IMG/VR virus record: IMGVR_UViG_2706795104_000001
Coordinates: 64,001-128,000 of that record
Source: an uncultured virus (IMG/VR IMGVR_UViG_2706795104_000001)
Lineage: Duplodnaviria > Heunggongvirae > Uroviricota > Caudoviricetes > Herelleviridae
Strand: one strand, 5' to 3'
DNA: 64,000 nt
Both the position numbers and the translations under genes were made by a program. The notes under the pieces were generated by a model. The model ran no database searches, had not been told where the DNA came from, and saw only the letters and a list, made by a program, of their open reading frames with translations. How positions within the stretch are numbered: position 1 is the stretch's first letter; each line of letters opens with the position of its first letter. Below, one piece after another: positions 1 to 63,652 of this stretch.

Positions 1-2082
1 TGGTATAACGGTAGTGTAATTGGAGAGACAGAGAAATGGGGTACTGTATACGGTGCAACACCTGCTACACCAGTTCTCTCTGACTTCGATATTGGTACGA
101 AAAATGTACCTGTGACACTAGATTATTACTATGCGGAGTTTGCATATTCATTAGTGTTCACGTTCGGCAGTTTCTCAAAAACATTCTCTACGGGTGTAGG
201 GAAGACATTCACAATGACATTCGATGACAACGACATCGCTAAGATGTACCAACAAACACCGAATGACAATGTGAAGCAAGCCAACGTTTGGGCAAGTACG
301 AAGTATAACGGGGTAGAGATAAACGATGGGGTTCCGAAGGATCAGAATAAGAAGGTTAACTTACGGGTTGTAAATAGTAATCCAGCATATGCAGGAGGAT
401 TTACCTACCTAGATTCGAATGGTACAACAACTGCTCTTACAGGGAATAACCAGTACATTGTACAGAACAAATCTACGTTACAAGTTAAGATTCCTGCAAC
501 AGCTAAAGCTATCGCACAGAATAGTGCTACAATGGCTCGATACGAAGTATCTGTAAACGGTTCAACGCAGTCTATCAACTACGCAACTACAGACCTTACG
601 CTTAACTTCGGTACGGTGGATGCGGCTACTAACGCTACACTTACAGTTACTGCAATTGATAGTCGAGGTAATAGAACATCTGCATCTTCTGTTATATTAA
701 TGTTGCCTTATTCACCACCTAGTATTTCTGCTAGTGCAGAACGATTAAACAACTTTGAAGCTTCAACTACGATTAAGTTAAGTGGGTCAATCTCACCTCT
801 AACCATTGGTGGTACTAATAAGAACTCTCTTCCCGTTGTTAAATTCCAAAGAAGACAGGTAGGTGGTACATACGATAGTCCAGGTACTAACTTTACAATA
901 ACAGGAAACCCTAACTTCACTGCAACGAATGCCGTAGTAACGCTAGATAATACAGTAGCTTGGGAGATTCTGATTACAGTAACAGATAAGGTAGGCTCCA
1001 CTGTAACGGCTCTACGGACAGTAGCGGTCGGTACTCCAATCTTCTTCATTGATACAGTGAAGAATGCTGTAGGGATTAACAAGTTCCCTAAAAGCGCAGC
1101 AAGTGGTCTCGAAATAGCAGGTGACTTGGATGTTGATGGTATACTTAAATTAAAGGCTAACCAATGGATCGCACAAGGTGCATATAGTTTACATGCCAAT
1201 GGTTCCGACTTTATGGCAGTCAACTCTATCTACTTTAGTAGTCCAGTACAGTCCACTGGGCAAGGATTAAACTTCCTAAGACCAGGTAAAACAGCAGGTT
1301 CTACAAATGCGAATGACTACAGTACTTTCGGTGTTCTAGACTATGCGATGAGGATGAACAACCAAACAATATTTTACCAGTTCCCGAATACTGGAAACCT
1401 ACGATTCGGTGGGGATTTTTATTCACAGAATAGCGGTGGAATTTTCTTTGATGTATATGGGAATATGAAAGGTCAACCCGATGCAGGTAGCGGTAATACA
1501 TGGTCACTTAAAGATGCTGATGGAAGAAATAGATTCCTAACGTATATCGGTAAAGGTGCGACAGGCTCTACAGAAATTAGTTCATATACGAACGGTGTAG
1601 ACTTTTACAACGATGGTGCAAAAGTGTTGATGATATACCAATCAGGTAGTAACGTTAACCGTTATTTAAAATTTGGTGATAGTGGTGGGATCATTAAGTG
1701 GCAAAATAACCAAGGTCGTTTCGAGGTTAGAACTAGTAATGACGGTGACTGGATGGAAATTGCAGGTAAAATCACAAACGCATCTTCTAGAAAGTACAAG
1801 CGGGACATTGAGGTATTCGAGGGAAGCGCAATGGATATTATCAATACCTCTGTAGCAAAAACGTACAAGTATAGAGATAGTGATTTAACACAGGTCGGTC
1901 TTATTGCAGAAGAAGCACCTCAAATTATTTTAGGTAAGAACGGAGACACAGTAGACTCCTATGGTATGGCAACACTGTCTTGGAAAGGGCTTCAAGAGAC
2001 ATATGCAGAACTTAGAAGTGTAAGGGAAACTCTAGCAGAAGTGCAGAGAGAGCTAATAAGATTAAAAATACAAATAGGATAG
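1..2082 (+). CDS. Tail fibre / receptor-binding protein with C-terminal intramolecular chaperone (peptidase S74-like); 5' truncated by the window
   Basis: Frame 1 is open from base 1. Thr/Asn/Gly-rich beta-type sequence. C-terminal SSRKYKRDI...YKY...GLIAEEAP...VDSYGM plus coiled coil is the S74 chaperone pattern. Confidence 0.8.
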   Translation, partial: WYNGSVIGETEKWGTVYGATPATPVLSDFDIGTKNVPVTLDYYYAEFAYSLVFTFGSFSKTFSTGVGKTFTMTFDDNDIAKMYQQTPNDNVKQANVWASTKYNGVEINDGVPKDQNKKVNLRVVNSNPAYAGGFTYLDSNGTTTALTGNNQYIVQNKSTLQVKIPATAKAIAQNSATMARYEVSVNGSTQSINYATTDLTLNFGTVDAATNATLTVTAIDSRGNRTSASSVILMLPYSPPSISASAERLNNFEASTTIKLSGSISPLTIGGTNKNSLPVVKFQRRQVGGTYDSPGTNFTITGNPNFTATNAVVTLDNTVAWEILITVTDKVGSTVTALRTVAVGTPIFFIDTVKNAVGINKFPKSAASGLEIAGDLDVDGILKLKANQWIAQGAYSLHANGSDFMAVNSIYFSSPVQSTGQGLNFLRPGKTAGSTNANDYSTFGVLDYAMRMNNQTIFYQFPNTGNLRFGGDFYSQNSGGIFFDVYGNMKGQPDAGSGNTWSLKDADGRNRFLTYIGKGATGSTEISSYTNGVDFYNDGAKVLMIYQSGSNVNRYLKFGDSGGIIKWQNNQGRFEVRTSNDGDWMEIAGKITNASSRKYKRDIEVFEGSAMDIINTSVAKTYKYRDSDLTQVGLIAEEAPQIILGKNGDTVDSYGMATLSWKGLQETYAELRSVRETLAEVQRELIRLKIQIG

Positions 2083-2097
2083 GGAGCGAACAAATAG

Positions 2098-2629
2098 ATG
2101 ATATACGATGGCTTACAAATTTACGAAAAAGAACTTATTATGCAAGGATTTAACAAGATGCAACCAAACAACCAAGATGCAACCAAACAACCAAGATGCA
2201 CTAGTAAGTGCTATTGCCCGTAAACAAGGTATAACTCTGTGGCAAGTCAAACCTGAGGACATCTTAAAGTACCATAAAGAACTTAAAACAGCTATGATGG
2301 ACGAGTTCGCTGACGTGTATATTAAGCTAGGGTTTAAATCGGTTAACGGGCATAGATATCGTTTAAATGAAAATGACCAAATTAACTTCTTAGGTAAGAA
2401 AGATTGGCTTCGTGACCACCCTGAAGCTACAGAGGTTCCGTGGAAAACAGAGGATGTAGGGTACATAGTGCATACAAGAGAAGACTGGTTAGTAGTACAA
2501 GCTGAAGCGTATACACACAAAGAAACTCAATTGTTCAAATACAACGAGAAAGTTACTGCTATTGCCGCTGCTACAACACACGAAGAACTTGTAGCAGTTT
2601 CTTGGACTGGTGAAGCACCAAATAAATAA
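2098..2629 (+). CDS. Tail-fibre-associated protein (DUF4376-like), frameshifted by a 19-bp tandem duplication
   Basis: RBS GGGAG precedes ATG 2098 (MIYDGLQIYEKELIMQGFNKMQPNNQD). Removing one 19-bp unit joins it in frame to the ORF ending at 2629 (GFKSVNGHRYRL...W.T....ITTHEELVAVSW-type pattern). Confidence 0.55.
2154..2200. repeat. Tandem repeat CAAGATGCAACCAAACAAC x2 plus CAAGATGCA
   Basis: Read directly: units at 2154-2172 and 2173-2191, partial unit at 2192-2200. Confidence 0.95.
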
Positions 2630-2653
2630 TAGATTCATATAGGAGGAAATAAA

Positions 2654-2830
2654 GTGGAACAACAATTACAACAACCACAGAATAAACCAATTAACCCGAA
2701 ACACATCATTGACGAGCAGAGAGTGTCTATCTTCGACCTAATGAACGAGAACATTATGCTTAAAGCATATATTGCTCAGTTAGAAGAAGAGAAAGCACAG
2801 TCTCAGGAACCAAAGGAATCGGCAAAATAA
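2654..2830 (+). CDS. Small coiled-coil hypothetical protein (58 aa), not in ORF track
   Basis: AGGAGG RBS at 2641, GTG start, TAA at 2828-2830. Confidence 0.7.
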   Translation: MEQQLQQPQNKPINPKHIIDEQRVSIFDLMNENIMLKAYIAQLEEEKAQSQEPKESAK

Positions 2831-2846
2831 GAAAGGTGAATAGACT

Positions 2847-3332: not shown

Positions 3333-3356
3333 GCCGAGGTTTTCCTCGGCTTTTCT
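3331..3356 (+). terminator. Intrinsic terminator
   Basis: AAGCCGAGG-TTTT-CCTCGGCTT followed by TTCTT. Confidence 0.8.
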
Positions 3357-3383
3357 TATATTATAAAAGAGAGGTGATAACAC

Positions 3384-4211: not shown

Positions 4212-4215
4212 GAGT

Positions 4216-5489: not shown

Positions 5490-5502
5490 GGAGGTTTACC
5501 CA

Positions 5503-10600: not shown

Positions 10601-11096
10601 AACTGTATCTATTGATAGTGTACCGTGGATGCCACTGGTAAACTATGCAGGAATTGAAACACCGTTCGTAGTTGGTTTAGCTAAGTTACGTGCGAAGTTT
10701 AAGTCTAACCGATATATCTCTCCAATGCTTGTACTTGATGATTTACTATTCGTAAACTTCGTTAGTGCAACAAAAGGTGAGTATGTCTCTAAGACAGTTG
10801 ACCAATCGGCAGCTCCGTTCAACCAAGTTACACTTGCATACGACTCAGCAGCACCAGCAGGAACTCGTGTTAAACCTTACTACTCGTTAGACCAAGGTGC
10901 AACATGGAAAGAGTTTACGAAAGCACCAACTACTACGAAGAGATCAGCAGAGTTCACTCGTTTCACATTCGTAGAGAAAGTTGCAAGTTCTGCAAGAGAG
11001 ATTTCGATTAAGTATAAACTGGTACTTGAAGGGGATAACCGATTCCTACGTCCAAGGGTTAGACAGTTAACTGGTATGACTACGGACGCAATCTAA
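7601..11096 (+). CDS. Large baseplate/adsorption protein (DUF4815-like), split by a +1 frameshift near 9766
   Basis: PYYDRFD...VLFR..RPLQQAELNEIQ N-terminus and YDPLAQSF in the second ORF. LFMTFDG then NRVAVKP joins if one base is removed (GAT GGA T AAT AGA). Confidence 0.75.
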
Positions 11097-17175: not shown

Positions 17176-17181
17176 CATGTA

Positions 17182-18268
17182 TTGGCTAAGAAATTTGTTG
17201 TTTTCGGAGATTACCATTTACATAACTTCGCAGATTATGCGAAACCAGTGACTGCCACATTGTACGGACAGGAATTAGAAGTTACGAGATCGTCTAGTAG
17301 CGCATGTTAAAACAATAGACAAGCTATTTGAAATTGCTCACGAGAATGACGCAGACGTAATATTCGTAGGAGACTTCTTCCACTCCCGTTATAGTATCCC
17401 AACCTTAGTATTTAATCTAGGGTTCGATGCTATTTACGAGAACATGCAGAAGTATCCGAATACTAATATGTACATGATTGTAGGAAACCATGACCAAAAG
17501 GATAACTCACGATTTCCTGTACATAGTTTACGATCCTTTAGAACGATTGACAGAGTACATGTGCTAGATGAGTTCCGACCAATGGACATTGGTTCTTGTG
17601 TACTGTATCCTGTTTCTTATTCGGACGATACAAGATTCTTAAAAGAACAAATCGTTCAATATGCTCAGGACGCAAAACTGCAAGACAAACCAACTCTACT
17701 ACTGGGACACATCGGTATAGATGGTAGTGAAACAGGACGATACAGTCACAGACTAGAAGGTGCATTCAAAGTAGGGGACTTATTCCCTCACATCTTTACA
17801 TATGGTTTATTTGGTCACTATCATAAATGGCAGTTTCTAGCAGGACTACTCCACTTCCTTTACACAGGTAACACAATCCAAACCAGTTTCTCAGATGAGG
17901 GACAAGACAAAGGTGTGTGGCTAGTAGACGTGGAGAACATCGGTAGACCACAGTTCATTCCGATACAAAATAAAAAGTTCATTACGTTAACGGAGGTTCC
18001 TGCTAACGCACAAGAAGTTATCGACAATAATTACGTACGTTTTGTCGTCCCTCAATCAGTAGCTACAGAGATAGAAGTGTTCAAGGAGAGTACCGATAAT
18101 ATCCGAGTAGAAGTGCAGAGAGAGTACAAATCAGATTTACGTATTGACATTGAAGTCGGGTCGGATGAGCATACAATCGTAGAAGCATATACGGAAAAGA
18201 TGTATCCACACGTAACGAGTATAGCACTAGATGTACTAAAAGAAGCCAAAATGAGACAGACGGGTTAG
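17182..18268 (+). CDS. sbcD: SbcD/Mre11-like nuclease subunit, +1 frameshift near 17287
   Basis: TTG start gives MAKKFVVFGDYHLH (motif I). After removing one base it continues DRLVAH...VGDFFH...GNHD...GHYH. Confidence 0.8.
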
Positions 18269-22462: not shown

Positions 22463-23260
22463 ATGGATACGTTGAAACCAGTAGAAGAATTGGAAGTATT
22501 ATACATAGCACCACCAGGATTCGAGCCAACGAATGCTCATGGCGATGATTTTTGCTATGACATCAAAGCGTTAGAGGGTCGCTTAATCCCACAAGGAACG
22601 TTTAAATCAGTACTAGTACCAACAGGGCTAAAGACTGCATTCGTTACTAAGTACGGTATGAAGCTAAACACTCGAAGTGGCTCAGGATACCATACACCAA
22701 TTATCCTTTCAAACTGCACAGGTATTATCGAAGGATCGTATCGTGGTTACATTGGTGTACTATTACGCAACACATACCAAGATAACTCAGTGGTAGACTT
22801 CGTATTTACAACGAAAGGTGAACGAGTTCCTTTGTCTGAAGTACCTGAATCGGTATTACAGAACGCTCGTGAGTTCTATGAAGAGGATTCAGTAAACTTA
22901 GGCTACCCTAAACCACTAACACTAGAAGATTACGAAAGAGAGTTTGAAGCGTGGGAGAGACGTTGGCATGGTGTCGATATCCACGGTGCAGTATCCGGTA
23001 TCCACGCTAAGTTACAACGTGGAGAAATGTTAACAAAAGAGGAAGCAGACCTTTGGACAGACCGTAACGCACCTCAACCTGAAATTCAACATCGCTTATT
23101 CGTAGACTTAGTACCACGAGGAACTGTGTTTGTTCAAGAGGGAGAACGTATCGCACAGATTCACTTCCAAAAAAGTGTGAAGATAAAGTTAACTGCAACA
23201 GACGAACTACCTGATAGTGTTCGTGGCGAAGGTAACTACGGTTCAACAGGTTCCAAATAA
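22463..23260 (+). CDS. dut: Trimeric dUTPase with a large internal insertion
   Basis: CYDI, RSGSG, GIIEGSYRG, GERIAQ and RGEGNYGSTG motifs 1-5. Confidence 0.88.
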   Translation: MDTLKPVEELEVLYIAPPGFEPTNAHGDDFCYDIKALEGRLIPQGTFKSVLVPTGLKTAFVTKYGMKLNTRSGSGYHTPIILSNCTGIIEGSYRGYIGVLLRNTYQDNSVVDFVFTTKGERVPLSEVPESVLQNAREFYEEDSVNLGYPKPLTLEDYEREFEAWERRWHGVDIHGAVSGIHAKLQRGEMLTKEEADLWTDRNAPQPEIQHRLFVDLVPRGTVFVQEGERIAQIHFQKSVKIKLTATDELPDSVRGEGNYGSTGSK

Positions 23261-23978: not shown

Positions 23979-24184
23979 TGGCTCCTCTAAAGGCGATATG
24001 TCTAAAGACCTTTCGTTTAAGGGATGCAAGTGGTTCTGTAGGTGTATTCTGTGAAAAAGGTAAAACGTACAACATTGTAGAGTACAGTGAAGACCTAATG
24101 ACACTTGAACTGGAAAAGGAATCTTGTTACCAAACAACTATTAACGATCCTGACTTCCTAGTACATTATGAGGAGGACAAGTAA
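23978..24184 (+). CDS. Hypothetical protein
   Basis: 68 aa, TAATG coupling. Confidence 0.6.
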   Translation: MAPLKAICLKTFRLRDASGSVGVFCEKGKTYNIVEYSEDLMTLELEKESCYQTTINDPDFLVHYEEDK

Positions 24185-24185
24185 C

Positions 24186-24755
24186 ATGGCATCAACTGGT
24201 AGAGGTAGTAAGACAAAAGGGTCAGGCTATGAGTTAAAAACAGCCAAGACTCTAGCAGCTTGGAGTGGGGAACAGGTACATAGGGTTCCCCAATCGGGTG
24301 CAGGAGGACACACATGGGGTAGCGATAGTCGTATGAATGGTGACATTGTATTCCCTGTAGGAAGTAAAAATCCTTTTGTATACGAATGCAAGAAGCGTGA
24401 AGGGTGGGAGATGCATCACCTATTCCTAAATATCGGTGAAATTAAAACATGGTGGGAACAGGTTGTTACAGATGCTCGAAGAATGAAAGAGCACGGTATG
24501 GCTCCATGTCTCATCTTTTCTAAGAACCGTGATAAGGACTATGTGTTAATTCCGTACCTTCCTGAAGTATTTAATAATCTACTAATAAATAAGCACCCAG
24601 TATCATTACAACGGGTACGTTACAATAATATCCGTGGAGAAGAACAAAACTTTGATACGATTCTAACTACGTTAGACGGATTCACTTCTTTTGCTCCTCA
24701 GGAATTATTCGCACTGTATCAAGATATAAACTGGGATATGCATAATGCAAGTTAA
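24186..24755 (+). CDS. Holliday junction resolvase (Hjc-like PD-(D/E)XK)
   Basis: SKTKGSGYELK...RVPQSGA...GDI....YECKK. Confidence 0.85.
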   Translation: MASTGRGSKTKGSGYELKTAKTLAAWSGEQVHRVPQSGAGGHTWGSDSRMNGDIVFPVGSKNPFVYECKKREGWEMHHLFLNIGEIKTWWEQVVTDARRMKEHGMAPCLIFSKNRDKDYVLIPYLPEVFNNLLINKHPVSLQRVRYNNIRGEEQNFDTILTTLDGFTSFAPQELFALYQDINWDMHNAS

Positions 24756-31463: not shown

Positions 31464-32486
31464 ATGGACGAGCTAAGAGTAGTAGAACTGTTTGCAGGAT
31501 ACGGTAGCCAATCAATGGCACTGAAACGAGCAAACATCAATTATAAAACTGTAGCGATTGCAGAGATTGATAAGGACGCATTAATCTCTTATGAAGCAAT
31601 CCACGGCAAACCAAACAACCTAGGAGACATCACACAGGTAAAAGGAGAGGACGTTCCTGACCATGACTTCCTGACATACTCATTCCCTTGTACAGACATT
31701 TCTGTATCAGGTGCAATGAAAGGTCTATTGGAAGGTTCGGGTACAAGCTCTAGTACGTTATGGGATGTAAAGAGAGTAATAGAAACGAAGAAACCTAGAT
31801 TCCTAATGATGGAAAATGTAGACAACCTTGTTATCAAATTCATGGACGATTACTTAATGTGGTTAGGATTCTTGAAGTATCAAGGATACACAACAACATG
31901 GAGAGTCATTGACGCATCTCCTTACGTACCACAAAGACGTAAGCGTGTTATAGCAATCTCTCAGTTAGGAAAACAAGGATTCGTATTCCCTGAAGACCCT
32001 ACAGAGCGTACATACGACCTGATAGATGTACTAGAAGAGTTTGACGATGCAGAAGCATTAGAGAGCTTTAAAGACCCTACAGTGCGAAGCTATACAGTAG
32101 ACCCAGTTACATATTATAACCCAAACTCAGATTACTATAAACTGCAACCTGAGAATAGTAGAGCGTCATTTATCGGGTACATAGGAAACCAACCGAAACA
32201 GGCTACAAGAGTATATGAACCTATTACGGCTTCAACACTGACTGCTAATGGTGGCGGCCAAGGTGGAAAGACAGGTCTGTATCATCTAGGTACACATATC
32301 CGAAACCTCAGTCCATTAGAAGCGTGGCGCATCATGGGTGTGAGTGACGAGGACTTTTACAAAGCAAAAGCGACAGGTATCAAGAAGACCCAACTACTAC
32401 GTCAAGCAGGTAACTCTATTGTAGTTGATATCATGGTACCGATATTTGAAAAGCTCTTTAAAGATTATATGAAGGAGACAAACTAA
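31464..32486 (+). CDS. C5 DNA cytosine methyltransferase 1
   Basis: LFAGYG (I), SFPCTDIS (IV), MENV (VI), PQRRKR (VIII), TLTANGGG (TRD), QAGNS (X). Confidence 0.93.
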   Translation: MDELRVVELFAGYGSQSMALKRANINYKTVAIAEIDKDALISYEAIHGKPNNLGDITQVKGEDVPDHDFLTYSFPCTDISVSGAMKGLLEGSGTSSSTLWDVKRVIETKKPRFLMMENVDNLVIKFMDDYLMWLGFLKYQGYTTTWRVIDASPYVPQRRKRVIAISQLGKQGFVFPEDPTERTYDLIDVLEEFDDAEALESFKDPTVRSYTVDPVTYYNPNSDYYKLQPENSRASFIGYIGNQPKQATRVYEPITASTLTANGGGQGGKTGLYHLGTHIRNLSPLEAWRIMGVSDEDFYKAKATGIKKTQLLRQAGNSIVVDIMVPIFEKLFKDYMKETN

Positions 32487-32487: not shown

Positions 32488-33153
32488 ATGACAAAAAAGA
32501 AACTAAAGGTATTAGAACTTTTTGCAGGAACCAGGTCAGTAGGTAAGGCATTCGAAGCACAAGGACATGAGGTATATAGTGTTGAGTGGGATCAAAAGCA
32601 CCCAGGAATCCATTGGTACGCAGACATTTCTAAAATCACTGCACAAGAGATTATTGAACGATTCGGAAAACCTGATATCATTTGGGCTAGTCCTGATTGT
32701 ACAAGCTACTCAGTAGCAGGTATCTCGCATCACCGTAGAAAAGACGATGACGGTAACTTACGTCCTATTAGTGAGTATGCCCAATTCTGCGACACTACAA
32801 ACCAACACGTAGTAGATTTAATTCGTGAACTTCAACCGAAGTATTACTTCATTGAGAATCCTCGTGGTGGAATGAGAAAGATGAACTTCATGCAGGATGA
32901 CGCTCTACCGAATGGTGGTAAACGTCATACAGTTACATATTGCCAGTATGGTGACACTCGAATGAAACCGACTGATTTATGGACTAACCACCCTGATCCG
33001 AAATTTAAAGCTCCATGTAAAAACGGTGCTCCTTGCCACGTAGCAGCACCTCGTGGAAGCGCAACAGGTACGCAAGGTATAAAAGGGTCTGTAGACCGTT
33101 CACGCATCCCTGAGGAGCTATGCAACCACGTAGCGAAGATTTCTGAGGAGTAA
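32488..33153 (+). CDS. Short atypical DNA cytosine methyltransferase
   Basis: LELFAGTRS (I), WASPDC (IV), IENP (VI), YCQYG..MKPT (VIII-like). Only 221 aa. Confidence 0.75.
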   Translation: MTKKKLKVLELFAGTRSVGKAFEAQGHEVYSVEWDQKHPGIHWYADISKITAQEIIERFGKPDIIWASPDCTSYSVAGISHHRRKDDDGNLRPISEYAQFCDTTNQHVVDLIRELQPKYYFIENPRGGMRKMNFMQDDALPNGGKRHTVTYCQYGDTRMKPTDLWTNHPDPKFKAPCKNGAPCHVAAPRGSATGTQGIKGSVDRSRIPEELCNHVAKISEE

Positions 33154-33198: not shown

Positions 33199-34182
33199 AT
33201 GACAAAACTAAAACTAGTAAGTTTATTTAGTGGTATCGGGGCATTCGAGAAAGCGTTAGAAATACTAGGGGTTGACTACGAGTTAGTAGCGTTCTCCGAA
33301 ATAGACACGTATGCAATCCAATCCTATTGTGCGATACACAATATATTTTCCACCAAGAACTTAGGAGACATCAAGAAAGTAGATTATAGTAGTGTCCCTG
33401 ACTTCGACCTAATGACGTACGGATTCCCGTGTCAGGATATATCGTCAGGAGGTAGGGAAGCAGGACTAGCAGAAGGTAGTAACACTCGTTCTAGTACGTT
33501 ATGGGACGCTATGAATCTAGCCAACACAAAGAAACCAAAGTATATGATTGCAGAGAACGTGAAGAATCTACTCAGTCCGAAATTCAAGAACGACTTTGAC
33601 AAATGGATGAAACGTTTAGACCAGATGGGGTACAACACATACTACTCAGTTATCAACGCTAAAGATTTTGTACCACAGAATCGGGAGAGAGTATTCGTAG
33701 TGAGTATTCGAAAAGATGTAGATAAAGGGGACTTCACATTCCCTACAGACTATGTATCCCTTACAAGATTACACAATATCATGGAAACAGATATACTGAC
33801 TAAATATTATTTACGTGATGAGATTCAGCAGCGACTAGACTTCGATGCAGATGGTTGGGTTAGTCCCGAGAACACGAATGAAATTTTACGGATCGGTCAA
33901 GTATCTAGTAAAAAGAGTCAAGCAGGAACTGTGTACCACTCGGACGGAATATTCCCTACAGTATGTGCAGGTACTCACGGGTACGCAATGGGTTACGTAT
34001 TCGAAACTTCTACAAAACTAGCAAGGAGAATAACACCATTAGAAGCGTGGAAACTAATGGGGTTCTCGGAAGAGGATTACCAAAAGGTTAGAGATATAAT
34101 GAGTGATACGCAACTGTATAAGCAAGCAGGAAATTCTATCGTAGTCGATGTTGCAGTAGCATTACTACGTCAACTATTCTAG
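33199..34182 (+). CDS. C5 DNA cytosine methyltransferase 3
   Basis: LFSGIG, GFPCQDIS, AENV, PQNRER, TVCAGTHG, QAGNS. Confidence 0.93.
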   Translation: MTKLKLVSLFSGIGAFEKALEILGVDYELVAFSEIDTYAIQSYCAIHNIFSTKNLGDIKKVDYSSVPDFDLMTYGFPCQDISSGGREAGLAEGSNTRSSTLWDAMNLANTKKPKYMIAENVKNLLSPKFKNDFDKWMKRLDQMGYNTYYSVINAKDFVPQNRERVFVVSIRKDVDKGDFTFPTDYVSLTRLHNIMETDILTKYYLRDEIQQRLDFDADGWVSPENTNEILRIGQVSSKKSQAGTVYHSDGIFPTVCAGTHGYAMGYVFETSTKLARRITPLEAWKLMGFSEEDYQKVRDIMSDTQLYKQAGNSIVVDVAVALLRQLF

Positions 34183-34455: not shown

Positions 34456-37400
34456 TTGAAAGCATTATTTCTACAAGAATTTGTAAGAGAGAGTCATATG
34501 CAACGACAGAATGACGGATCGTTTAAGAACATCTTCTTCCAAACCAACGGAGGAAAGTTATTAAAGAAACTGATCCACGAAGGGCTAGAGTTAACGAAGA
34601 ACGACTACTACATAGATTACGCATTCTTCAAAGTACCTGATGTTATTACTCGTGATAATCGAGATAGAGCCATTAAGTACAAGCCACCAACTGCAAAAGA
34701 ATCGAAACCTGAATACGAGAAACTGTACCAACGTATCGTACAGGACAAGCCTGACATCATTATCCCTTCGGGTAAACTCGGATGTAAGGCTTTACTTAAT
34801 ATAGCTGAGATTTCTAAGCTACGTGGAGTGCCACAGCAAGTTACAATCACTGCTAATGTGGACATGTTCGATGAGAGTGCAGTTGTGGAAGGTGTAGATA
34901 ACTCAGGTTGGGTTACAGAAACATACACACATACATGTTGGGTTATGCCAATCTACTCTATGGAGTATATGCTCGTTAATCCAAAGATTCAGAACTTAGT
35001 AGAAGCAGACTTCGGTACACTGAAGAAGTATGTGGAGCAAGGTGACAACGCATTTATTGCAAAAGATGTAAAGTATGAAGACGTTACGACTATTGAACGT
35101 GTTCGAGAAATATTCACAAAGATAGTAAAAGAATCACCCGTTGTAGCATGGGATTTAGAGACCAACACGTTACAGGCTGAGAAACAAGGTTCTAAGCCAC
35201 TAGTAATCTCACTTTCTTGGAAAGAGGGAACAGGTGTAACCATTCCACTAGAGCATAAGGACTGGACATGGCTCCCTGGACACTTAGCCGAGATTTACAA
35301 CTACATAAAAGAGTTTGTTGCCGATCCGAAAATTATTAAAGTCGGACACAACATCAAGTTCGATATCAGGTTCCTACGTCTGTCCAAAGGATTTACAGAG
35401 TTCAATAACCACCGTGATACAAAAACAATGTATTACTTACTTGTAAACCAAGACGTAAAAGGTACCTTACGATTATCTGATTTAACGTTCGAATTTACCG
35501 ATATGGGTGGATATGATAGAGCGTTAGAAGACTTCAAGAAGGATTACAAGGAGAACTACAAGAAACAAGAGAAAGAACGTATCGCAGCTTTAAAAGCAGA
35601 ATGGAAAGAGAAATGTGCAAAAGAAAGAGCAGACGTACAACAACAAGTTAAGAGTGCAAAAGGTGAAATACGCACACTCAAGAAGCAATCTCCTACACCT
35701 GAAATTCTCACTAGAATAGAGAGACTGCAAGAGGTCGCACAACGTAAATATGTGAAACCTCCGATGCCCGATTTTGGGACCGCAGGAGCACCAGTCAATC
35801 CTGTAGACGGATCGGACTTCTGCTATGAATGGATTCCATTATTCGAAATGCTTTCTCCGTACGCTAGTGGTGACGTAGACGTGTGTTTACGCATTTACAA
35901 CCAACTAGACCAAAGATGTAAGCAGAAAGGCTTAGAGCACATTAGAGAGCTTTATACGAATCATTATCCACAACTATCTGCAACACTTGCTAAAATTGAA
36001 GCAACAGGTATCAAACTAAACATCCCATATGTAAAAGCACTAGCCGAAGCATACCAAAAAGAAGAGGATCGTTTAGTAAGTATTATTCGTAAGTTCCCTG
36101 AAGTAAAGCAAATGGAGGACGAACATCGCCAGCTTTACCAAATGGGGTTAAACGAACTTATGAAGCCTGTAGCTGAAAGGGACAAGAAGATAGCGGCCTT
36201 ACGTGACAAGTACAAGGACAAGCTAGAGTTTAATGCGAACTCACCTGATGATAAGAAGGAAGTCATGTACAAGATTACAGGTATTCGACTACCGTTCGAT
36301 AAAGAGCGACTAGTTGACTCTGTATTCGAGAAGGGACTAAAAGAGGAAGAGATTGAATGGTTCCACTATAAAACGAATACAGCAAACATGGAGTATATCG
36401 CTAAGGAGTATCCTGAGTACAAAGAGTTAATGGAGCATTTAATCCATCACTCACTTGTTAAAACACGGAAACAAAGTTTCACGTACAAGTTCCTAGGTAT
36501 GGTAGACGCAGACGACATTCTACACGGTACGTTCAACCCTGAGGGTACAGAGACATCTCGTCTATCTTCAAAAGACCCGAACTGTCAGAACTTCCCTCGT
36601 AAGACGGAAGATGTAACTCGTTTCGACTACCAACATCCTATTAAACGAATGTTCATAAGTAGATTCCCTAACGGAGCACTACTGCAACTCGATTACTCTT
36701 CTCTAGAATCTCGTATCATGGCATTAATTGCATACGATGAAGAGATGATTGATGCATTCTTAACAGGTAAAGATGTACATACGCACACTGCTTCACTAGT
36801 ATTCAAGAAACCTGAAGAAGAAGTAACAGGTGACGAACGTACAAACGCTAAACGAGTAACATTCGGACTTGCGTACGGGGAAGCACCATTCTCATTCGCA
36901 CCTAAGTACAACATGACAGTAAAAGAAGCAGAGAAACTGTTCGATGACTACTTCAAGAACAAACCGAAGATTAAAACGTACATTGATGAAACGAAAGAGA
37001 AAGCTAGACAGACAGGATTCATCTCTTGTATGCAAGGTTTCACTCGTAACTTACGAGACGTGTATTCACAAGATAAACAAAAACGTAATGGTGCATTACG
37101 TCAGTCTGTAAACACACAAGTACAGGGATCAGGTGCATACTTAACGAATAACTCTTTAATCTACATCAACAACATTATCGAGAAACAGGGATTACGTTCT
37201 CGTATTGTTCTAACTGTACACGATAGTATTGTAATAGATTGCCCACCTGAAGAAATTCATATGATGGCTCACATCGGTAAAACGGTAATGGAAAACTTAC
37301 CGATCCCTTGGTTATTCATTGAGTGGAAAGGTGAAACAATCCGATTCCCTATTACTGCCGATGTAGAGATTGGTACAACTTACAATGATATGGTTAACTA

Positions 37401-37572
37401 CGATAAGGAGGAACTGAACACATTCCAAAAAGTAGAGAACTACTGTAAGTACCATATGGACTTAAAGAGCGTAAAGCATTACAAGGAGTCAGGTGTCATT
37501 ACAGACGAGAAAGCAAAAGAGTTAAAAGCCATGATTGAATCTAAGAAACACGAGTATCAAATGGCTATATAA
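34456..37572 (+). CDS. polA: Family A DNA polymerase with N-terminal UDG-like and 3'-5' exonuclease domains; uninterrupted
   Basis: WDLETN, GHNIKFD, YASGD (Exo I-III); DYSSLESR, RTNAKRVTFGLAYG, TVHDS (motifs A-C). Confidence 0.95.
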   Translation: MKALFLQEFVRESHMQRQNDGSFKNIFFQTNGGKLLKKLIHEGLELTKNDYYIDYAFFKVPDVITRDNRDRAIKYKPPTAKESKPEYEKLYQRIVQDKPDIIIPSGKLGCKALLNIAEISKLRGVPQQVTITANVDMFDESAVVEGVDNSGWVTETYTHTCWVMPIYSMEYMLVNPKIQNLVEADFGTLKKYVEQGDNAFIAKDVKYEDVTTIERVREIFTKIVKESPVVAWDLETNTLQAEKQGSKPLVISLSWKEGTGVTIPLEHKDWTWLPGHLAEIYNYIKEFVADPKIIKVGHNIKFDIRFLRLSKGFTEFNNHRDTKTMYYLLVNQDVKGTLRLSDLTFEFTDMGGYDRALEDFKKDYKENYKKQEKERIAALKAEWKEKCAKERADVQQQVKSAKGEIRTLKKQSPTPEILTRIERLQEVAQRKYVKPPMPDFGTAGAPVNPVDGSDFCYEWIPLFEMLSPYASGDVDVCLRIYNQLDQRCKQKGLEHIRELYTNHYPQLSATLAKIEATGIKLNIPYVKALAEAYQKEEDRLVSIIRKFPEVKQMEDEHRQLYQMGLNELMKPVAERDKKIAALRDKYKDKLEFNANSPDDKKEVMYKITGIRLPFDKERLVDSVFEKGLKEEEIEWFHYKTNTANMEYIAKEYPEYKELMEHLIHHSLVKTRKQSFTYKFLGMVDADDILHGTFNPEGTETSRLSSKDPNCQNFPRKTEDVTRFDYQHPIKRMFISRFPNGALLQLDYSSLESRIMALIAYDEEMIDAFLTGKDVHTHTASLVFKKPEEEVTGDERTNAKRVTFGLAYGEAPFSFAPKYNMTVKEAEKLFDDYFKNKPKIKTYIDETKEKARQTGFISCMQGFTRNLRDVYSQDKQKRNGALRQSVNTQVQGSGAYLTNNSLIYINNIIEKQGLRSRIVLTVHDSIVIDCPPEEIHMMAHIGKTVMENLPIPWLFIEWKGETIRFPITADVEIGTTYNDMVNYDKEELNTFQKVENYCKYHMDLKSVKHYKESGVITDEKAKELKAMIESKKHEYQMAI

Positions 37573-42783: not shown

Positions 42784-43136
42784 ATGGCTGACATTAAAAT
42801 GGATAAAGACGGCATCACAGTACAAGGTGAAGAAGTACAAGAAGTTCATCAATCCGGTATTTCGTGCCTGTAGAAGTGCCACCAGTGGAGCCAATGATGA
42901 TTGTTCGTTTACTTGTGTTCGTACTTGCATTAGTAAACGCAATTGGTGCAATGTTCGGTTACGACTTGAATCTATCAGTGGATCAGCAAAATGTGTATGA
43001 CATTGTGTCTGCATTGTTCTTACTGGGGTCAGGATTCCACGTAGCATGGAAGAACAACAACATCTCGAAGACCTCTCGTGTGAAAGCGCATGTCGGAGAG
43101 CAAGTAACAATTGATACGAAAGGGGAACAGAAATAA
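42784..43136 (+). CDS. Holin (SPP1-like, two TM segments); N-terminus frameshifted near 42847-42862
   Basis: IVRLLVFVLALVN...AWKNNNIS. The RBS-led ATG at 42784 is out of frame by 2 nt. Confidence 0.7.
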
Positions 43137-47898: not shown

Positions 47899-47912
47899 GG
47901 GAGATGTTTATA

Positions 47913-48419
47913 ATGAAATTAGATTACGGATCAGGAAGACAACCAAAGGCAGGATTCAAGTCATCGGACTTTATTGGTACACCGTGTTACGATTACTATA
48001 TCAAGGATTACAAAGTATTAGACCTAGCAGATAATACGTGCGATGTGATTCATTGCCGTAACGTGATTCACCACATTCCAAAGGAAGACTTACCGATCCT
48101 GTTCGGAGAGTTCAAACGTTTATTAAAGCCAGGTGGACAGTTAATCATCTCAGAGCCACGAGAAGAGTTCCATAAGCAGAATTTGATTCTAGACCTTATT
48201 TGGTACCGTTGGGTGAACTACGATACAAACATCATGATTCCTTACGAGTATGTAAACTACAAAGAGTATCTAACAGACTTTACGCTGCTTGATACAGTGA
48301 ATGAGTATAACAACGAGATTCTTACATACGTAGTAAATAAGCCAGTACAAAAAATTACACGTAGAACAGGAGTGTTAGTATGGTCATCGAACTCAAAACG
48401 ATCTCTTATTACGAACTAG
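47913..48419 (+). CDS. Class I SAM-dependent methyltransferase (type 11-like)
   Basis: LDYGSG (motif I); DVIHCRNVIHHI; RLLKPGGQLIISEP. Confidence 0.8.
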   Translation: MKLDYGSGRQPKAGFKSSDFIGTPCYDYYIKDYKVLDLADNTCDVIHCRNVIHHIPKEDLPILFGEFKRLLKPGGQLIISEPREEFHKQNLILDLIWYRWVNYDTNIMIPYEYVNYKEYLTDFTLLDTVNEYNNEILTYVVNKPVQKITRRTGVLVWSSNSKRSLITN

Positions 48420-55716: not shown

Positions 55717-56067
55717 ATGAATAAAACAATAGACTTTATGCTTAAATGGTTCTTACCAATTTGTATCATGATTATCCTCTTCTCGGGAGCAGGTCAGATA
55801 GTGTACGGTTCCGTGACTGTAGGTCTAATTCAGGTATTCACAGGGTTCTATGTCGCAACTATGATTACACCTATGAAAATGGAACGAATGGTTAAGCGTT
55901 ACGCTATTTGGTTGGGGATCTTAACTGTAGGGATGATTATTAGTCTTATCGTTCTCCTATTCATAGGAAACTACTTTGGAGCGTTCAGTACTGTGTTAGT
56001 CACTGGTGCAGGTATGTATAACATTTACATTCTATACTTCAAACAGGGTAAGGAGGATCAGGAATGA
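55717..56067 (+). CDS. Membrane protein (about 4 TM)
   Basis: Hydrophobic segments, GGAGG RBS. Confidence 0.7.
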   Translation: MNKTIDFMLKWFLPICIMIILFSGAGQIVYGSVTVGLIQVFTGFYVATMITPMKMERMVKRYAIWLGILTVGMIISLIVLLFIGNYFGAFSTVLVTGAGMYNIYILYFKQGKEDQE

Positions 56068-56574: not shown

Positions 56575-56576
56575 AC

Positions 56577-58100: not shown

Positions 58101-58138
58101 TACAATAGAGAGGAGAATAAACGTAAAGGGGAATTGTT

Positions 58139-58909: not shown

Positions 58910-58949
58910 CTTTCCATCATTTTAAGAAAAAGTAAGAAAAAAGTGGAAA

Positions 58950-59640: not shown

Positions 59641-59735
59641 AAGTAAAAGATTATGGTATAATTAAATAGTTACAGAATAGGGTTGCATTTTATGGTGCAA
59701 CCCTTTATTATATTATTTATAGAGGGAGTTACAGT

Positions 59736-60272: not shown

Positions 60273-61126
60273 TGCGATTACCAAATGTAAAATCAAAAAA
60301 AGGTTCATTAGAAATGTTACAAGGTATGTTAAAGGACAAACGAAAACAAGTATACGGTGTATTCTACACAAACGATTTCTTCAGCCAACGTTACGTAGCT
60401 CGTAACCACGTATTAGCAGACGAGGTTAACATTGAAGAGAAGACAGTTAAACTAAAGATTGCTACACGAGTAGAGCACGCAGGTTTATGGGAGCTAGAGA
60501 ATACGTTAGACACATTAGTTCGTTACGAAGCAGGAGATATCCCAGGATACGATTACACAGAAGAGAACGCTACGATCCCTACAGTTCCTGAACCAATCTC
60601 TGTAACGAAACACCTATACAGTATCGACTTAGTTCTAATTATGAAGGAGCCATCAATCACATACCAATCGTTTAGTATTGCAGGAGTTAAGTTCTTAATG
60701 ATTAACATTCTGCATGTGATAGAAGACGATGGTGACGAGTTCGAACAGAAAGTATCGCTACTATTCAGTGAAGCAGGTAAGCTAAGTGTATTCTCTCACT
60801 TATATAATAAAGAGTTAACACCTGAAGACATCCATATGTTGTTGCATCTAATCATGGATAAGAATATTACAGGAAAAGAAATTTTAGCCGTACGTATCCA
60901 ACATAAGTCAGGGACAAAGAGTGTACTCGTTCCTGCTGATGAGTTAATCAGTACTTGGATAGCTGCTAAGGATTCATATGTTTTCAGTGCAGGGTTAAGC
61001 TATATTGACATCCCTTACGATAGCATCAACACATACACATTTACAATGCAACCGAACACCATTGCAGGTCATCAATTAGAGCTAGAGAACGAAGAACATA
61101 CGTTACATATTCTAATGGAGAACTAG
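60272..61126 (+). CDS. Hypothetical protein
   Basis: 284 aa, TAATG coupling. Confidence 0.7.
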   Translation: MRLPNVKSKKGSLEMLQGMLKDKRKQVYGVFYTNDFFSQRYVARNHVLADEVNIEEKTVKLKIATRVEHAGLWELENTLDTLVRYEAGDIPGYDYTEENATIPTVPEPISVTKHLYSIDLVLIMKEPSITYQSFSIAGVKFLMINILHVIEDDGDEFEQKVSLLFSEAGKLSVFSHLYNKELTPEDIHMLLHLIMDKNITGKEILAVRIQHKSGTKSVLVPADELISTWIAAKDSYVFSAGLSYIDIPYDSINTYTFTMQPNTIAGHQLELENEEHTLHILMEN

Positions 61127-61127
61127 T

Positions 61128-61376
61128 ATGATAACATTAACTGTCACTGTATCGGTAATCGTATACGTATTAGAGTCTCTATTCTGCGCTTGGACACTAA
61201 CCCTCCCTCTACTAACCTGGTCAGGATCAGAGGTTGAAAAAGGGTTACCTAAAGGTAAAGCCCTAAAATGGGGCTTCCTTGGTGCCCTAATAGGAAACAT
61301 AAGTATCCTTGCTCTTGTGGGAATCGTAAACCTTCTATTCGATTTAGGAGATTGGATGATTAATAACTTACCGTAA
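61128..61376 (+). CDS. Small membrane protein
   Basis: Two TM segments, GGAG RBS. Confidence 0.6.
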   Translation: MITLTVTVSVIVYVLESLFCAWTLTLPLLTWSGSEVEKGLPKGKALKWGFLGALIGNISILALVGIVNLLFDLGDWMINNLP

Positions 61377-61404
61377 ACTAGGATTAATTTCCTAGTTTTT
61401 CTTT
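61375..61404 (+). terminator. Intrinsic terminator
   Basis: AAACTAGGA-TTAATT-TCCTAGTTT plus T-run. Confidence 0.75.
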
Positions 61405-61708
61405 ATATTCACGATCCTACAGAGCCATTTTAAGTAGAAAAAAGTACACTACATAGTGCCGTTAATTTTTAGGTTCTAAACTGGTTTTTCGGTACCAATC
61501 GTGAACAGCCTGATTTCATACAAGATATTCCACATTCGTAAACGTTAAAAAACCATACTACGTTGTGTAACTTTTAAACAATTTACGAAAAAGTTTAAAA
61601 TTTACTGTATGATTTACTATATTATACGTAGACGTTGATACAGAAGGTTTTAGAGGACAATTTCCTCTATTTACGATGTGAATATATTTGAAAGGGTTGG
61701 GATTTAAA

Positions 61709-62431
61709 ATGGCAGGAAACGATAAAAAGAAATTAGGATCAAGCAGTGTATTGGTGCAGTTGTATAAGAATAAAAAGTTATGCACGAAAGTAGACAACAT
61801 GTTAGACGAAGGACTAACGTACGACTACATTATAGAGTTCTGTAAGGATAATGATTTCAGTATTTCAAAAGCTTCACTAACGAACTATAAAAAGAAACGT
61901 GAAGAAGCAATTGAAAAAGGAGTACCGTTACTTCAGTTACTGGACAAGCGTGCAAAGGATAACGTTACATACATTTCAGATAAGCAAGTAAACGAGTTTT
62001 GGAAGTCACCTGAGGACGGATCGGAAGAATCTATGTCAATGGCTTCCGTTACAGATATGACAAAAGTAGGTACAATCTTTAACGATTTAGAACTACTGGA
62101 TGAGATTATCAAGAAAGGTGCAAAAGGGTTACAGGCATTTGACGTAGTGGATACACCGTTGGCGATGAAAGCTATCGAATTGAAAGCGAAGATTACAAAC
62201 AACCAATTAAGCGGTCTATCTATTGCAGGTCTACGTGAGATTAAATTACGTCAAACTGCAAAAGAAACTGCTATGATGCAGGTTATCATGGCATACGTAC
62301 CTGAAGACCAACACGATAAGTTATTTGAAGACTTAGACCTTGCAGAGAAAGAGTTCTACGAGAACTTAGACCTTACTGAAGAAGACAAACGTATCTCAAA
62401 AGCTATCTCAGCCGCAGGACTTGGTGATTGA
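61709..62431 (+). CDS. Conserved phage protein with N-terminal HTH-like segment (possibly terminase small-subunit-like)
   Basis: VDNMLDEGLTYDYIIEFC....FSISKASLTNYK HTH-like segment plus helical remainder. Function is inference. Confidence 0.5.
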   Translation: MAGNDKKKLGSSSVLVQLYKNKKLCTKVDNMLDEGLTYDYIIEFCKDNDFSISKASLTNYKKKREEAIEKGVPLLQLLDKRAKDNVTYISDKQVNEFWKSPEDGSEESMSMASVTDMTKVGTIFNDLELLDEIIKKGAKGLQAFDVVDTPLAMKAIELKAKITNNQLSGLSIAGLREIKLRQTAKETAMMQVIMAYVPEDQHDKLFEDLDLAEKEFYENLDLTEEDKRISKAISAAGLGD

Positions 62432-62509
62432 GGAAGACAACTGAATAAGTGAGAATTAACGGAGGGTTCTGCTATATTACTTGTAACAATAGAAAAGGAG
62501 AGTAATAAT

Positions 62510-63652
62510 ATGCAGACCCTTCATTTAGATGATAAGAAACGATACGCAAAGGAACGAGGATATACATTACTAGCTGAAGAGAACTTTAATAGGAATACTA
62601 CGGTTATAGTGAGAAAGGATAGTAATGGTTACGAGTACACAGTTCATTGGAGCAGCTTCCGTGCAGGTGCCGAGCCTGTACGAACTACGTTTGAAACTAA
62701 ATGCAAGCAAGCTAAGGAACGAGGATACACACTACTTGAGACAGAGAACTTCGGTATAAATGAAAAAGTAAAGCTTCAGAACGATGACACTGAAGAGGTA
62801 TACGAAGTTAAGTTTACTGACTTCTTACACAAAGGATACAGAGAGAAATCACAGACTGTAATATCTAAAGGAGAAGCAGTTATCAAGGCGTACCTTGAGA
62901 CCAACATAAAAGAAGGATTCAGGTTCCGTTATCAACATCGTGTAGACCTAGATAACAAGAAATTATACTACGACTTCAGTATACTGGATCGTAGCGACAA
63001 TGTTATAGGGTTCATTGAGTATAATGGAGAGCAACATTACAATCCGAATAGTTTTGGTGGCTCTACCTTTGCTTTCACTCAAGAATCTGATAAACTAAAG
63101 GAGACATACGCAGAAGAACAAGGTGTACCGTTACTGGTTATCCCTTATAGTAAGTCTACACAGATGTCGATAGCTAAAGAAGTCCAAAGAGCGTTCTCAG
63201 AGTGCGTATTAGACGAGATACAGAGTTTCACACCTAAACGTATCGACCGTAGCCACTCTACGCTAGAGGACAAGCAAGAACTTGTTAAACAGAAAGGCTA
63301 CAGACTTCACGATTCAATTAAAGAGAACTTCACTACAATGGATAAAGTTACCCTTGTCAGTATTGAAACAGGAGCCGAGTGGAAGGTTAAATGGTTTGAC
63401 TTCCTTAACGGTGCAGTACCGAGAGCAGAAGAACACAAGAGAAGAACAAAAGGATCGTTAGAAGAGAAACAAAAGATTGCAGACTACTTAGGTTATGAAC
63501 TACTTGAGACAGATAACTTCTCTGTCAAAAAGAAAGTTCAATTAAAGGACAAAGAGACAGGAGAGGTTAGAATGTTAAAATGGGAACCACTAAAAACGAA
63601 ATACACTAGATTGCAGAAGAAAGCGTTAGAGTCTGCTGGTTTAGGAATATAA
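62510..63652 (+). CDS. Homing-type endonuclease: Vsr/DUF559-like core flanked by four repeated ~50-aa modules
   Basis: SKGE..I...L...QH.....YDF.......IEYNGEQHY core; repeats (AKERGYTLL.ENF....V....GY.Y.V.W..F). Confidence 0.7.
   Translation: MQTLHLDDKKRYAKERGYTLLAEENFNRNTTVIVRKDSNGYEYTVHWSSFRAGAEPVRTTFETKCKQAKERGYTLLETENFGINEKVKLQNDDTEEVYEVKFTDFLHKGYREKSQTVISKGEAVIKAYLETNIKEGFRFRYQHRVDLDNKKLYYDFSILDRSDNVIGFIEYNGEQHYNPNSFGGSTFAFTQESDKLKETYAEEQGVPLLVIPYSKSTQMSIAKEVQRAFSECVLDEIQSFTPKRIDRSHSTLEDKQELVKQKGYRLHDSIKENFTTMDKVTLVSIETGAEWKVKWFDFLNGAVPRAEEHKRRTKGSLEEKQKIADYLGYELLETDNFSVKKKVQLKDKETGEVRMLKWEPLKTKYTRLQKKALESAGLGI

Follow-up and report, generated by a model that had tools for sequence, protein, structure and literature searches.

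Why should a phage genome keep the tetranucleotide GATC almost only where one particular base stands beside it? The question is raised by a 64-kb stretch of an uncultured virus (bases 64001–128000 of the 152,778-bp record IMGVR_UViG_2706795104_000001; hereafter the window), in which nearly every GATC reads YGATCC or, on the other strand, GGATCR (Y, C or T; R, A or G; W, A or T; H, any base except G; D, any base except C), and which carries a cassette of three genes for cytosine-5 (C5) DNA methyltransferases or their relatives, here called MA, MB and MC. A 10-kb stretch matches myophages of the Bacillus cereus group, at 94% identity in Hobo and BM15 and at 86–90% in JBP901, BCP8-2, Bc431v3, Deep Blue and others; JBP901 is classified in Herelleviridae, Bastillevirinae, Caeruleovirus, and by these sequence matches the genome (G000 below) is a Caeruleovirus-like myophage of the B. 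cereus group. We compared it with four complete relatives (G001–G004, 87–94% identical over the aligned parts) and with six B. cereus/thuringiensis myophages of other genera, namely B5S and Flapjack (Bequatrovirus), Bastille (Bastillevirus), BPS13 (Wphvirus), and BCP78 and TsarBomba (Tsarbombavirus), as well as with Bobb, a phage of B. pumilus.

When the flank distribution that the first-pass annotation had read by eye was computed, the flanks proved to be far from the null: 107 of the 115 GATC sites in the window, rather than "on the order of 100", are YGATCC or GGATCR, a context that base composition predicts for 20% of them (23 sites; binomial p = 2.6e-64). Composition does give only a minority a 5' G or a 3' C, as had been supposed (36% expected; binomial p = 1.0e-39), and the fewer than ten exceptions noticed at the outset are exactly seven, at 10942, 17288, 31221, 48400, 48739, 51485 and 54318. 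By class there are 43 CGATCC, 14 TGATCC, 29 GGATCG and 21 GGATCA, with a single GGATCT and no GGATCC, again in agreement with the earlier reading, and also no AGATCC. Total GATC is halved in the window (115 sites vs 220 expected from mononucleotide and 201 from first-order Markov composition), while CGATCC (43 vs 5–7) and GGATCG (29 vs 8–11) are in excess and HGATCD and RGATCY are almost lost, so that the depletion is uneven across flanks.

The same holds for the whole genome, where 270 of 298 GATC sites obey the rule and HGATCD is down to 25. As a codon-aware null we used 200 synonymous-codon shuffles over 205 crudely called open reading frames (ORFs). CGATCC/GGATCG is found 166 times against 45±6 in the shuffles (maximum 66) and GGATCA/TGATCC 82 times against 65±7; all other NGATCN classes lie 4–10 standard deviations under expectation, including AGATCA/TGATCT (5 vs 79), AGATCC/GGATCT (1 vs 65) and CGATCA/TGATCG (3 vs 54), as well as AGATCT (0 vs 42), TGATCA (0 vs 32) and GGATCC (0 vs 15). 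The near absence of RGATCY reported at first sight is thus borne out by flank counts and shuffles alike. GATC sites occur in every one of the three codon phases. The GATC flank rule is real and highly non-random.

The relatives follow it as well. Each of the four has 292–334 GATC sites, 286–302 of them in CGATCC/GGATCG or GGATCA/TGATCC, with no GGATCC, no TGATCA, no CCGG and at most one AGATCT. Where an allowed site differs in a distant relative, it is the GATC core that is gone (55–64 sites per distant relative), and hardly ever does a GATC persist there with forbidden flanks (1–2 sites). The phages of other genera differ among themselves. B5S, Flapjack, Bastille and BPS13 contain no GATC and no GGCC at all in whole genomes of 154–166 kb, for which composition predicts about 530–570 GATC and 200–230 GGCC. 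The C5 methylase family PF00145 had no match in five of the six myophages, TsarBomba being screened against the Dam family only, and the D12, N6_N4 and Dam methylase families had no match in BCP78 and TsarBomba where screened. These two hold 328 and 341 GATC, respectively, with no RGATCY and no TGATCA in either whole record and with CGATCG above expectation (41 and 33 vs 22–24). Composition and codon-aware nulls both predict more GATC than Caeruleovirus contains, and its relatives on the same hosts behave alike, as in restriction-site avoidance.

Four methylase-less phages without a single GATC site indicate, therefore, a strong pressure against GATC in B. cereus-group hosts. That pressure, taken together with a genus that has orphan C5 methylases and retains GATC in one asymmetric context, makes shielding by an overlapping methylase word the best available reading: a phage methylase would protect GATC inside GATCC/GGATC, a proposal drawn from sequence comparison to which we give a probability of roughly 60%. 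The hosts would restrict GATC, probably by means of a Sau3AI-like enzyme that is blocked by cytosine methylation, and one orphan C5 methylase of Caeruleovirus would methylate GATCC/GGATC, most simply at the GATC cytosine of the GATCC strand. GATC within this word would stay uncut and hence be tolerated, while selection would purge the remaining sites, mostly by way of synonymous substitutions. GGATCY (that is, RGATCC), AGATCT and GGATCC would be removed as RGATCY, a separate BstYI-like target outside the shield, and GGCC and GGWCC would be covered in the same manner by a second shield word, CCGC. Enzymes specific for GATC and for GGCC are made by B. cereus-group strains and have entries in REBASE. 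According to two papers, Sau3AI is blocked by both 5-methylcytosine and N4-methylcytosine in GATC (PMC2615612, PMC10305163), and the former documents BceSII (GGWCC) of B. cereus ATCC 10987 as active (PMC2615612).

The loss of RGATCY can be set apart as a distinct pressure because methylase-less phages show it too: BCP78, TsarBomba and Bobb hold 328–473 GATC, yet not one AGATCC/GGATCT, AGATCT or GGATCC. Since they lack GGATCY likewise, its absence from the window needs no special methylase specificity, and an enzyme specific for YGATCC would give the same picture. The first-pass annotation had proposed that a methylase of the cassette shields GATC, and for GATCC/GGATC this fits the comparison of the five Caeruleovirus genomes; the alternative word ATCC and the protection of CCGG that it had suggested for the same enzyme are not supported. 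It had correctly found only two CCGG sites, both in ATCCGG (TATCCGG and AATCCGG), against 71–96 expected in the window, and the same two are the total of the genome. GATCCGG, however, is absent among the 70–88 GATCCG of each of the five genomes, the relatives lack CCGG altogether, and nothing speaks in favour of ATCC. CGCG occurs five times in the genome.

GGCC obeys a rule of its own, in that every site lies inside GGCCGC/GCGGCC in all five Caeruleovirus genomes (59/59, 62/62, 72/72, 60/60 and 51/51; 19 of the 59 sites of G000 fall in the window), and GGCCGC is found 54 times against 4.0 in codon shuffles. GGWCC reads GGACCGC at 16 of 18 sites, and the word common to GGACCGC and GGCCGC is CCGC, which implies a putative second shield word for GGCC and GGWCC. 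CCGCG is not tolerated (1 vs 41 expected), and this loss, together with the lack of any in-register CCGG/CCGC overlap, fits methylation on the first C of CCGC, the base at which GGCC enzymes would be blocked. The other enzyme would, by analogy, be likely to act on the GATC cytosine of GATCC. Among the flanks of CCGC, YCCGC is depleted (TCCGC 45 vs 85, CCCGC 7 vs 49) and GCCGC enriched (80 vs 38).

Which gene could encode the GATCC enzyme? MA (Table 1) also matches TIGR00675 (E 1.7e-47), has M.HhaI as its nearest solved structure (E 3.7e-30) and carries the full set of C5 motifs (FAGYG, FPC, ENV, QRRKR and GNS); like MC, it is of the size of the monospecific M.HhaI (327 amino acids, aa). Of 39 phage records that match MA, 20 have an identity of at least 85% and the next best reaches 40.5%; MA is confined to Caeruleovirus-type phages. 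MB matches only positions 1–113 of the 324 in PF00145, and its translation has SPDC where PC is expected and ENP where ENV is expected; it matches phrog_757 over its full length (E 5.4e-53), finds no match among PDB sequences, and is conserved along its whole length among 65 homologues without a variable block. Orthologues of both are present in all four relatives (MA 86–99%, MB 78–98% identical) and are the sole C5 genes of G002 and G004. The MC slot is variable: these two genomes lack it, G001 and G003 have a 50%-identical enzyme instead, and the rule is kept in all, so MC is not needed for it. We found no k-mer signature that follows the third methylase.

The MB family occurs at 60–72% identity in dozens of unrelated viral contigs of 27–60% G+C. 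We retrieved 73 foreign loci out of 80, the other 7 being Caeruleovirus, and those among them with a depletion of GATC or GGCC lack both shields: only 1 of 14 GATC sites in locus L068 and 4 of 18 in L070 have a GATCC context, 3 of 19 GGCC sites in L084 read GGCCGC, and L125 has no GGCC beside 331 CCGC. MB would thus explain neither word if its specificity is conserved, which leaves MA, by elimination, as the candidate for GATCC; we infer from these comparisons that MA rather than MB is the favoured candidate for the GATCC/GGATC shield. Two of the foreign loci, the IMG/VR contigs L069 and L128, have the inverse pattern, with 0 of 99 and 3 of 86 GATC sites flanked by a 5' G or a 3' C; they avoid GGATC, which is what an AlwI-type enzyme would be expected to cause.

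When 63 ORFs of the window and 112 others of at least 70 aa (175 in total) were searched with Pfam, no other DNA-methylase family, no N6-adenine family and no Vsr came to light. A further candidate in the window, a class-I S-adenosylmethionine (SAM) methyltransferase fragment (Table 1), was rejected as a DNA methylase, having no match to any DNA-methylase family. Beside MA, MB and MC, no nuclease family that could supply a partner restriction endonuclease was seen in Pfam, an absence that is not proof given the diversity of restriction enzymes. The cassette has as neighbours ribonucleotide reductase, a nucleotidyltransferase, phrog_1054 and DNA polymerase.

Several observations weigh against shielding by a cassette methylase. 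One C5 enzyme acting on an asymmetric word marks one strand only, so that protection would rest on hemimethylation. Homology does not reveal the specificity of MA: its closest full-length matches outside the genus are 44–46% identical, plasmids reach 36% and genomes offer one fragment at 38%, none of known specificity, and searches with MA and MB of PDB, NCBIfam and PHROGs returned generic names or no match, from which no specificity can be assigned. Two conserved methylases stand opposite two words, yet the relatives of MB shield neither, which suggests that an enzyme is missing or that one is more versatile than expected. The overlap of the two shield words, GATCCGC, hardly occurs (0–2 of the 70–88 GATCCG per genome). 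The Tsarbombavirus phages, with a similar avoidance profile and no detected methylase, still keep 328–341 GATC in most contexts, so the pressure against GATC is not universal in this host group. The presence of the methylases and of the rule coincides in one genus and amounts to one evolutionary contrast, and the 39 matching phage records contain no natural knock-out of MA. Finally, GGATCG is about 3.7-fold over the codon-aware null and is conserved, neither of which is predicted by mere tolerance.

The surplus and conservation of the surviving sites therefore call for separate consideration. GGATCG lies 3–6-fold above its count in the GATC-tolerant BCP78 and Bobb (29–54 CGATCC/GGATCG per genome-equivalent). 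The whole hexamer CGATCC/GGATCG has an identity to relatives of 0.71–0.74, against 0.49–0.51 for all hexamers, and ranks 3rd to 8th of about 985–1078 words, beside AGGAGG. Third-codon positions inside GGATCG changed at 49/306, 53/300 and 54/294 sites in three distant relatives, compared with 682/2746, 712/2676 and 673/2610 in the ±30-bp flanks, which is about one third fewer changes (p 5e-4 to 6e-3, the three relatives not being independent); measured against the same codons elsewhere, 46 of 303 changed where 104.5 were expected (G002), under half. GGATCA is neutral by both tests. GGATCG columns kept in all five genomes number 79 of 212, against 6–39 for 12 control words. Part of this conservation has an explanation, in that a change at G1 takes the site out of the shield and T4 to C yields GGACC, a word kept only as GGACCGC; a low change rate at G2 is left over. 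A mutational trap was rejected, as the core-mutant neighbours are not depleted (GAATCG 66 vs 61, GGATTG 63 vs 60, GGAACG 65 vs 56), and so was Vsr-type biased repair, for which the 175 ORFs hold no Vsr family and the donor words are not depleted. On four short terminal branches we count 17 gains and 33 losses for GGATCG and 34 gains and 16 losses for GGATCA; some of the surplus may thus be a relic in which the G at position 6 is drifting to A.

The sites are also unusually evenly spaced. The coefficient of variation (CV) of GGATCR gaps is 0.64–0.75 in the five genomes (0.70 in the window), compared with 0.93–1.24 for the 5–95% range of 212 control hexamers and a minimum of 0.845 among 2000 random placements. 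Gaps under 150 bp number 25 where 63 are expected (9 vs 23.6 in the window) and gaps over 1600 bp 5 where 16 are expected, and an exclusion zone of about 150 bp alone reproduces this spacing. Sites have no preferred place within genes, and genes without a site are rarer than Poisson predicts. BCP78 and TsarBomba have 2.10 GATC per kb (Caeruleovirus 1.84–2.06) at a gap CV of 0.77–0.78, with 50–54 short gaps against 89–94 expected and 2 long ones against 11, while in Bobb, from another host, GATC spacing is random (CV 0.95). Because these methylase-less phages match both density and regularity, the spacing does not follow from the shield. Two explanations offer themselves: a penalty on close GATC pairs in these hosts, imposed for instance by an enzyme needing two sites, as Sau3AI does, or a use of GATC in the lineage. 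A nick-pair model was rejected (close pairs in G000 have the same orientation in 12 cases and opposite in 13; alternations 147 vs 135 expected), as was compensatory turnover, since gains near lost sites fall in 21 vs 19.9, 18 vs 16.8, 21 vs 18.8 and 3 vs 2.8 intervals (p 0.15–0.57). A screen for a gene that might read GATC turned up 18 small ORFs that both genera share and the GATC-free phages lack, and no candidate among them. Surplus, conservation and even spacing of GATC are a genuine remainder that shielding does not explain.

Could this remainder reflect a use of the sites themselves? GATC may have a positive, spacing-sensitive function in Tsarbombavirus and Caeruleovirus (entry, nick or protein-binding sites) for which about two sites per kb are kept; the Caeruleovirus sites would have moved into the sole context that survives restriction, GGATCR being the maintained signal, and the idea is compatible with shielding. 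The surplus over shuffles and over BCP78 and Bobb favours it, as do the hexamer conservation with its slow third-codon positions and five-genome columns, the gap CV below the range of the control hexamers and the minimum of the random placements, and the density and regularity shared with BCP78 and TsarBomba. Against this, the four related phages B5S, Flapjack, Bastille and BPS13 live with no GATC, GGATCA evolves neutrally, lost sites are not made good nearby, the 17 gains and 33 losses of GGATCG are as compatible with a surplus in decay as with one that is maintained, the G1 and T4 effects account for part of the conservation, short-range repulsion alone reproduces the spacing, and the 18 shared ORFs include no candidate reader protein. 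We consider such a function unlikely. The corresponding model for the remainder, in which some two evenly spaced GATC per kb form a maintained genome-wide signal (nick, loading or recombination) relocated into the shielded word, would explain the GGATCG surplus, the Shine-Dalgarno-like conservation and the repulsion between neighbours, and is likewise put forward with considerable doubt.

The flank rule might also arise with no phage methylation at all, if one host enzyme cut only HGATCD and another only DGGCCH-like words, and sites flanked by G or C escaped. A rule of the form "left G or right C escapes" is formally symmetric and within reach of a palindromic enzyme with flank discrimination; the methylase-less phages of the same host group, however, keep no GGATCR (four genomes) or all flanks, the GGCC rule demands two more bases on a single side (GGCCGC), unlike a symmetric flank effect, and to our knowledge no enzyme of HGATCD or DGGCCH-like specificity has been reported, all of which makes this explanation very unlikely. 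A GATC-cutting nuclease of the phage's own, serving for instance the breakdown of host DNA, would explain a purge specific to the genus, and the phage has several uncharacterised ORFs; yet no MutH/Sau3AI, DpnII or other restriction-enzyme family was found in the Pfam scans of the 175 ORFs, and we find the idea hard to credit. The PD-(D/E)XK protein at 24168–24755 was rejected for this role: it is resolvase-like and present in 740 Herelleviridae records, GATC-rich ones included. Chance, codon usage or assembly artefact deserve almost no weight as sources of the pattern, even with one exception that is probably an error (see below), given the p value of 2.6e-64, the 200 shuffles of which none comes near, the three codon phases and the recurrence of the rule in four independently assembled genomes. 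Overlap shielding thus remains the reading we prefer.

The sites that break the rule appear to be recent. GATC is common to at least one relative at 13 of the 28 exceptions in the genome, compared with 243 of 270 allowed sites, and exceptions look young, as weakly deleterious new variants would. The commonest class is AGATCG/CGATCT (16 of 28), of which a few copies are conserved in all five genomes. The first-pass annotation had remarked that one exception coincides with an insertion, and the one at 17288 is indeed created by an extra A, inserted at 17287, that all four relatives lack (Table 1); it breaks the frame of an Mre11/SbcD-like exonuclease gene (17178–18268) that is whole in JBP901, and the site is probably a sequencing or assembly error, a real frameshift being the alternative. 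The view that the four exceptions of the accessory array (48–55 kb) mark recent acquisition is weak: those at 48400, 51485 and 54318 are common to relatives, and with three of the four shared, acquisition cannot serve as a general explanation.

Table 1 Features of the window discussed in the text (positions are those of the window).
Feature	Position	Strand	Description
GATC sites (n=115)	340..63456		107 YGATCC/GGATCR (57 GATCC-oriented, 50 GGATCR-oriented on +), 1 GGATCT, 7 other
AGATCG exception	17287..17292	+	1-nt A insertion; the four relatives without the A read CGGATCG (allowed)
CCGG site 1 of 2	22995..22998		Context GTATCCGGTATC; not inside GATCC
MA	31464..32486	+	340-aa C5 cytosine DNA methyltransferase; PF00145 positions 2–324 of 324, E 2.3e-50
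MB	32488..33153	+	221-aa short C5-methylase-like protein (phrog_757); PF00145 N-terminal half only, E 3.3e-8
MC	33199..34182	+	327-aa C5 methyltransferase; PF00145 E 6.2e-66
DNA polymerase A	34456–37572		One ORF here, 1038 aa; weak uracil-DNA glycosylase (UDG)-like N-terminal match
CCGG site 2 of 2	42854..42857		Context CAATCCGGTATT; not inside GATCC
Class-I SAM methyltransferase fragment	47904..48419	+	171 aa; Pfam Methyltransf_23/11/25, phrog_5399 'SAM-dependent methyltransferase'
GGATCT	55916..55921	+	Sole RGATCY-class site in the window, unique to this genome; relatives GTATTT, GGATAC, GGATAT

The window genes lie on the plus strand in nearly all cases and encode baseplate and tail proteins, helicases, primase, ribonucleotide reductase, the three C5 methylases, DNA polymerase, a RecA-like protein and many small ORFs. 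In JBP901, Bobb and phiAGATE an inserted ORF splits the DNA polymerase A gene, which is unbroken here. Outside the window, Pfam identifies anti-defence genes (Tad2-like, Tad4 and Apyc1-like; L145:14670–14930 on the minus strand, L150:7334–7663 and L150:7676–8443), and also an FtsK/SpoIIIE-family ATPase (773 aa) and an Alp7A/ParM-like actin (G000 139953–142274 and 136085–137182). The sequencing runs found to hold the stretch are metagenome contigs, with a best share of sampled words of 0.29. MA is also carried by phage record MN364664.1, named Xanthomonas phage Xoo-sp15, which is 87% identical to the Bacillus phage studied and whose host label looks doubtful.

Other words are missing from the genome as well. 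Asymmetric 5-mers are nearly erased genome-wide (CCAGA/TCTGG 2 vs 195, GAGGC/GCCTC 2 vs 129, CGACG/CGTCG 3 vs 142; CGWCG 3), and the same ones are erased in BCP78 and TsarBomba and not in B5S, Bastille, BPS13 or Flapjack; they are probably the targets of Type IIS or Type III enzymes. Among 6-bp palindromes, ATCGAT, GTCGAC, GAGCTC, CCATGG, GCATGC, GCTAGC, CTGCAG, GTGCAC and CTTAAG are absent genome-wide, CTCGAG occurs once and GAATTC twice. CCWGG numbers 74–90 in Caeruleovirus, 333–346 in Tsarbombavirus and 0–1 in B5S, Bastille, BPS13 and Flapjack (80 kb each) and in Bobb.

The paper on the Bc431v3 genome reports poor or no digestion by DraI, SspI, EcoRI, NdeI, HindIII and AccI, and two C5 methylases of unknown effect (PMC3601020). 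Our literature search, with supplementary files outside it, turned up no account of GATC being kept conditionally in these phages. If shielding is correct, genome sequence alone predicts two phage methylase specificities (GATCC/GGATC and CCGC) and the restriction enzymes that these phages meet (GATC, GGCC, GGWCC, RGATCY, CCGG and CGCG). It would also define a third route between losing all sites and methylating all of them, in which a longer asymmetric word is methylated and the sites that overlap it are kept, and it would help to predict which hosts B. cereus-group phages can infect and to deduce methylase specificity in other phages from k-mer statistics. Methylase-less relatives share the surplus and the regular spacing of GATC, which could in turn be signs of an unrecognised role for the word in these phages.

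Staphylococcus phage K avoids GATC against Sau3AI. Its total avoidance, like that of B5S, Flapjack, Bastille and BPS13, concerns the same target word in the same family, Herelleviridae, and follows the same logic of synonymous change; unlike it, the loss in Caeruleovirus is conditional, with about 300 sites per genome in one asymmetric context, above neutral density. Bacillus phages SPR, phi3T, rho11s, SPbeta and H2 encode orphan C5 methyltransferases of about 440–500 aa that have no partner nuclease, are multispecific and methylate palindromic targets. The enzymes described here resemble them as partnerless phage C5 methylases, and the SPR-type ones protect against Bacillus restriction enzymes, GGCC enzymes included. 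MA (340 aa) and MC (327 aa) fall short of the length of the SPR type and lack its tandem target-recognition domains, MA having one variable region, and the words GATCC and CCGC that we infer are asymmetric and merely overlap the restriction targets, so that most target sites would be unprotected and purged. AlwI (GGATC 4/5) recognises this very word, GGATC with GATCC on the opposite strand; according to a review, M.AlwI consists of two fused strand-specific methylases acting at Dam positions, i.e., on adenine, and AciI has a double methylase (PMC4081073). Unlike M.AlwI so described, the phage genes are single-domain, unfused C5 enzymes, and the 175 ORFs hold no adenine methylase and no AlwI-type nuclease. 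An enzyme of the M.Sau3AI type, methylating all GATC, is indirectly disfavoured as well, because full shielding would leave HGATCD unpurged (25 of 298 seen). Overlapping methylation of the kind met at the bench, by Dam or Dcm, protects only those restriction sites that overlap the methylase's word. The arrangement proposed for Caeruleovirus would be like this overlap blocking in its logic, except that here it is deduced from a genome shaped over evolutionary time rather than measured on DNA.

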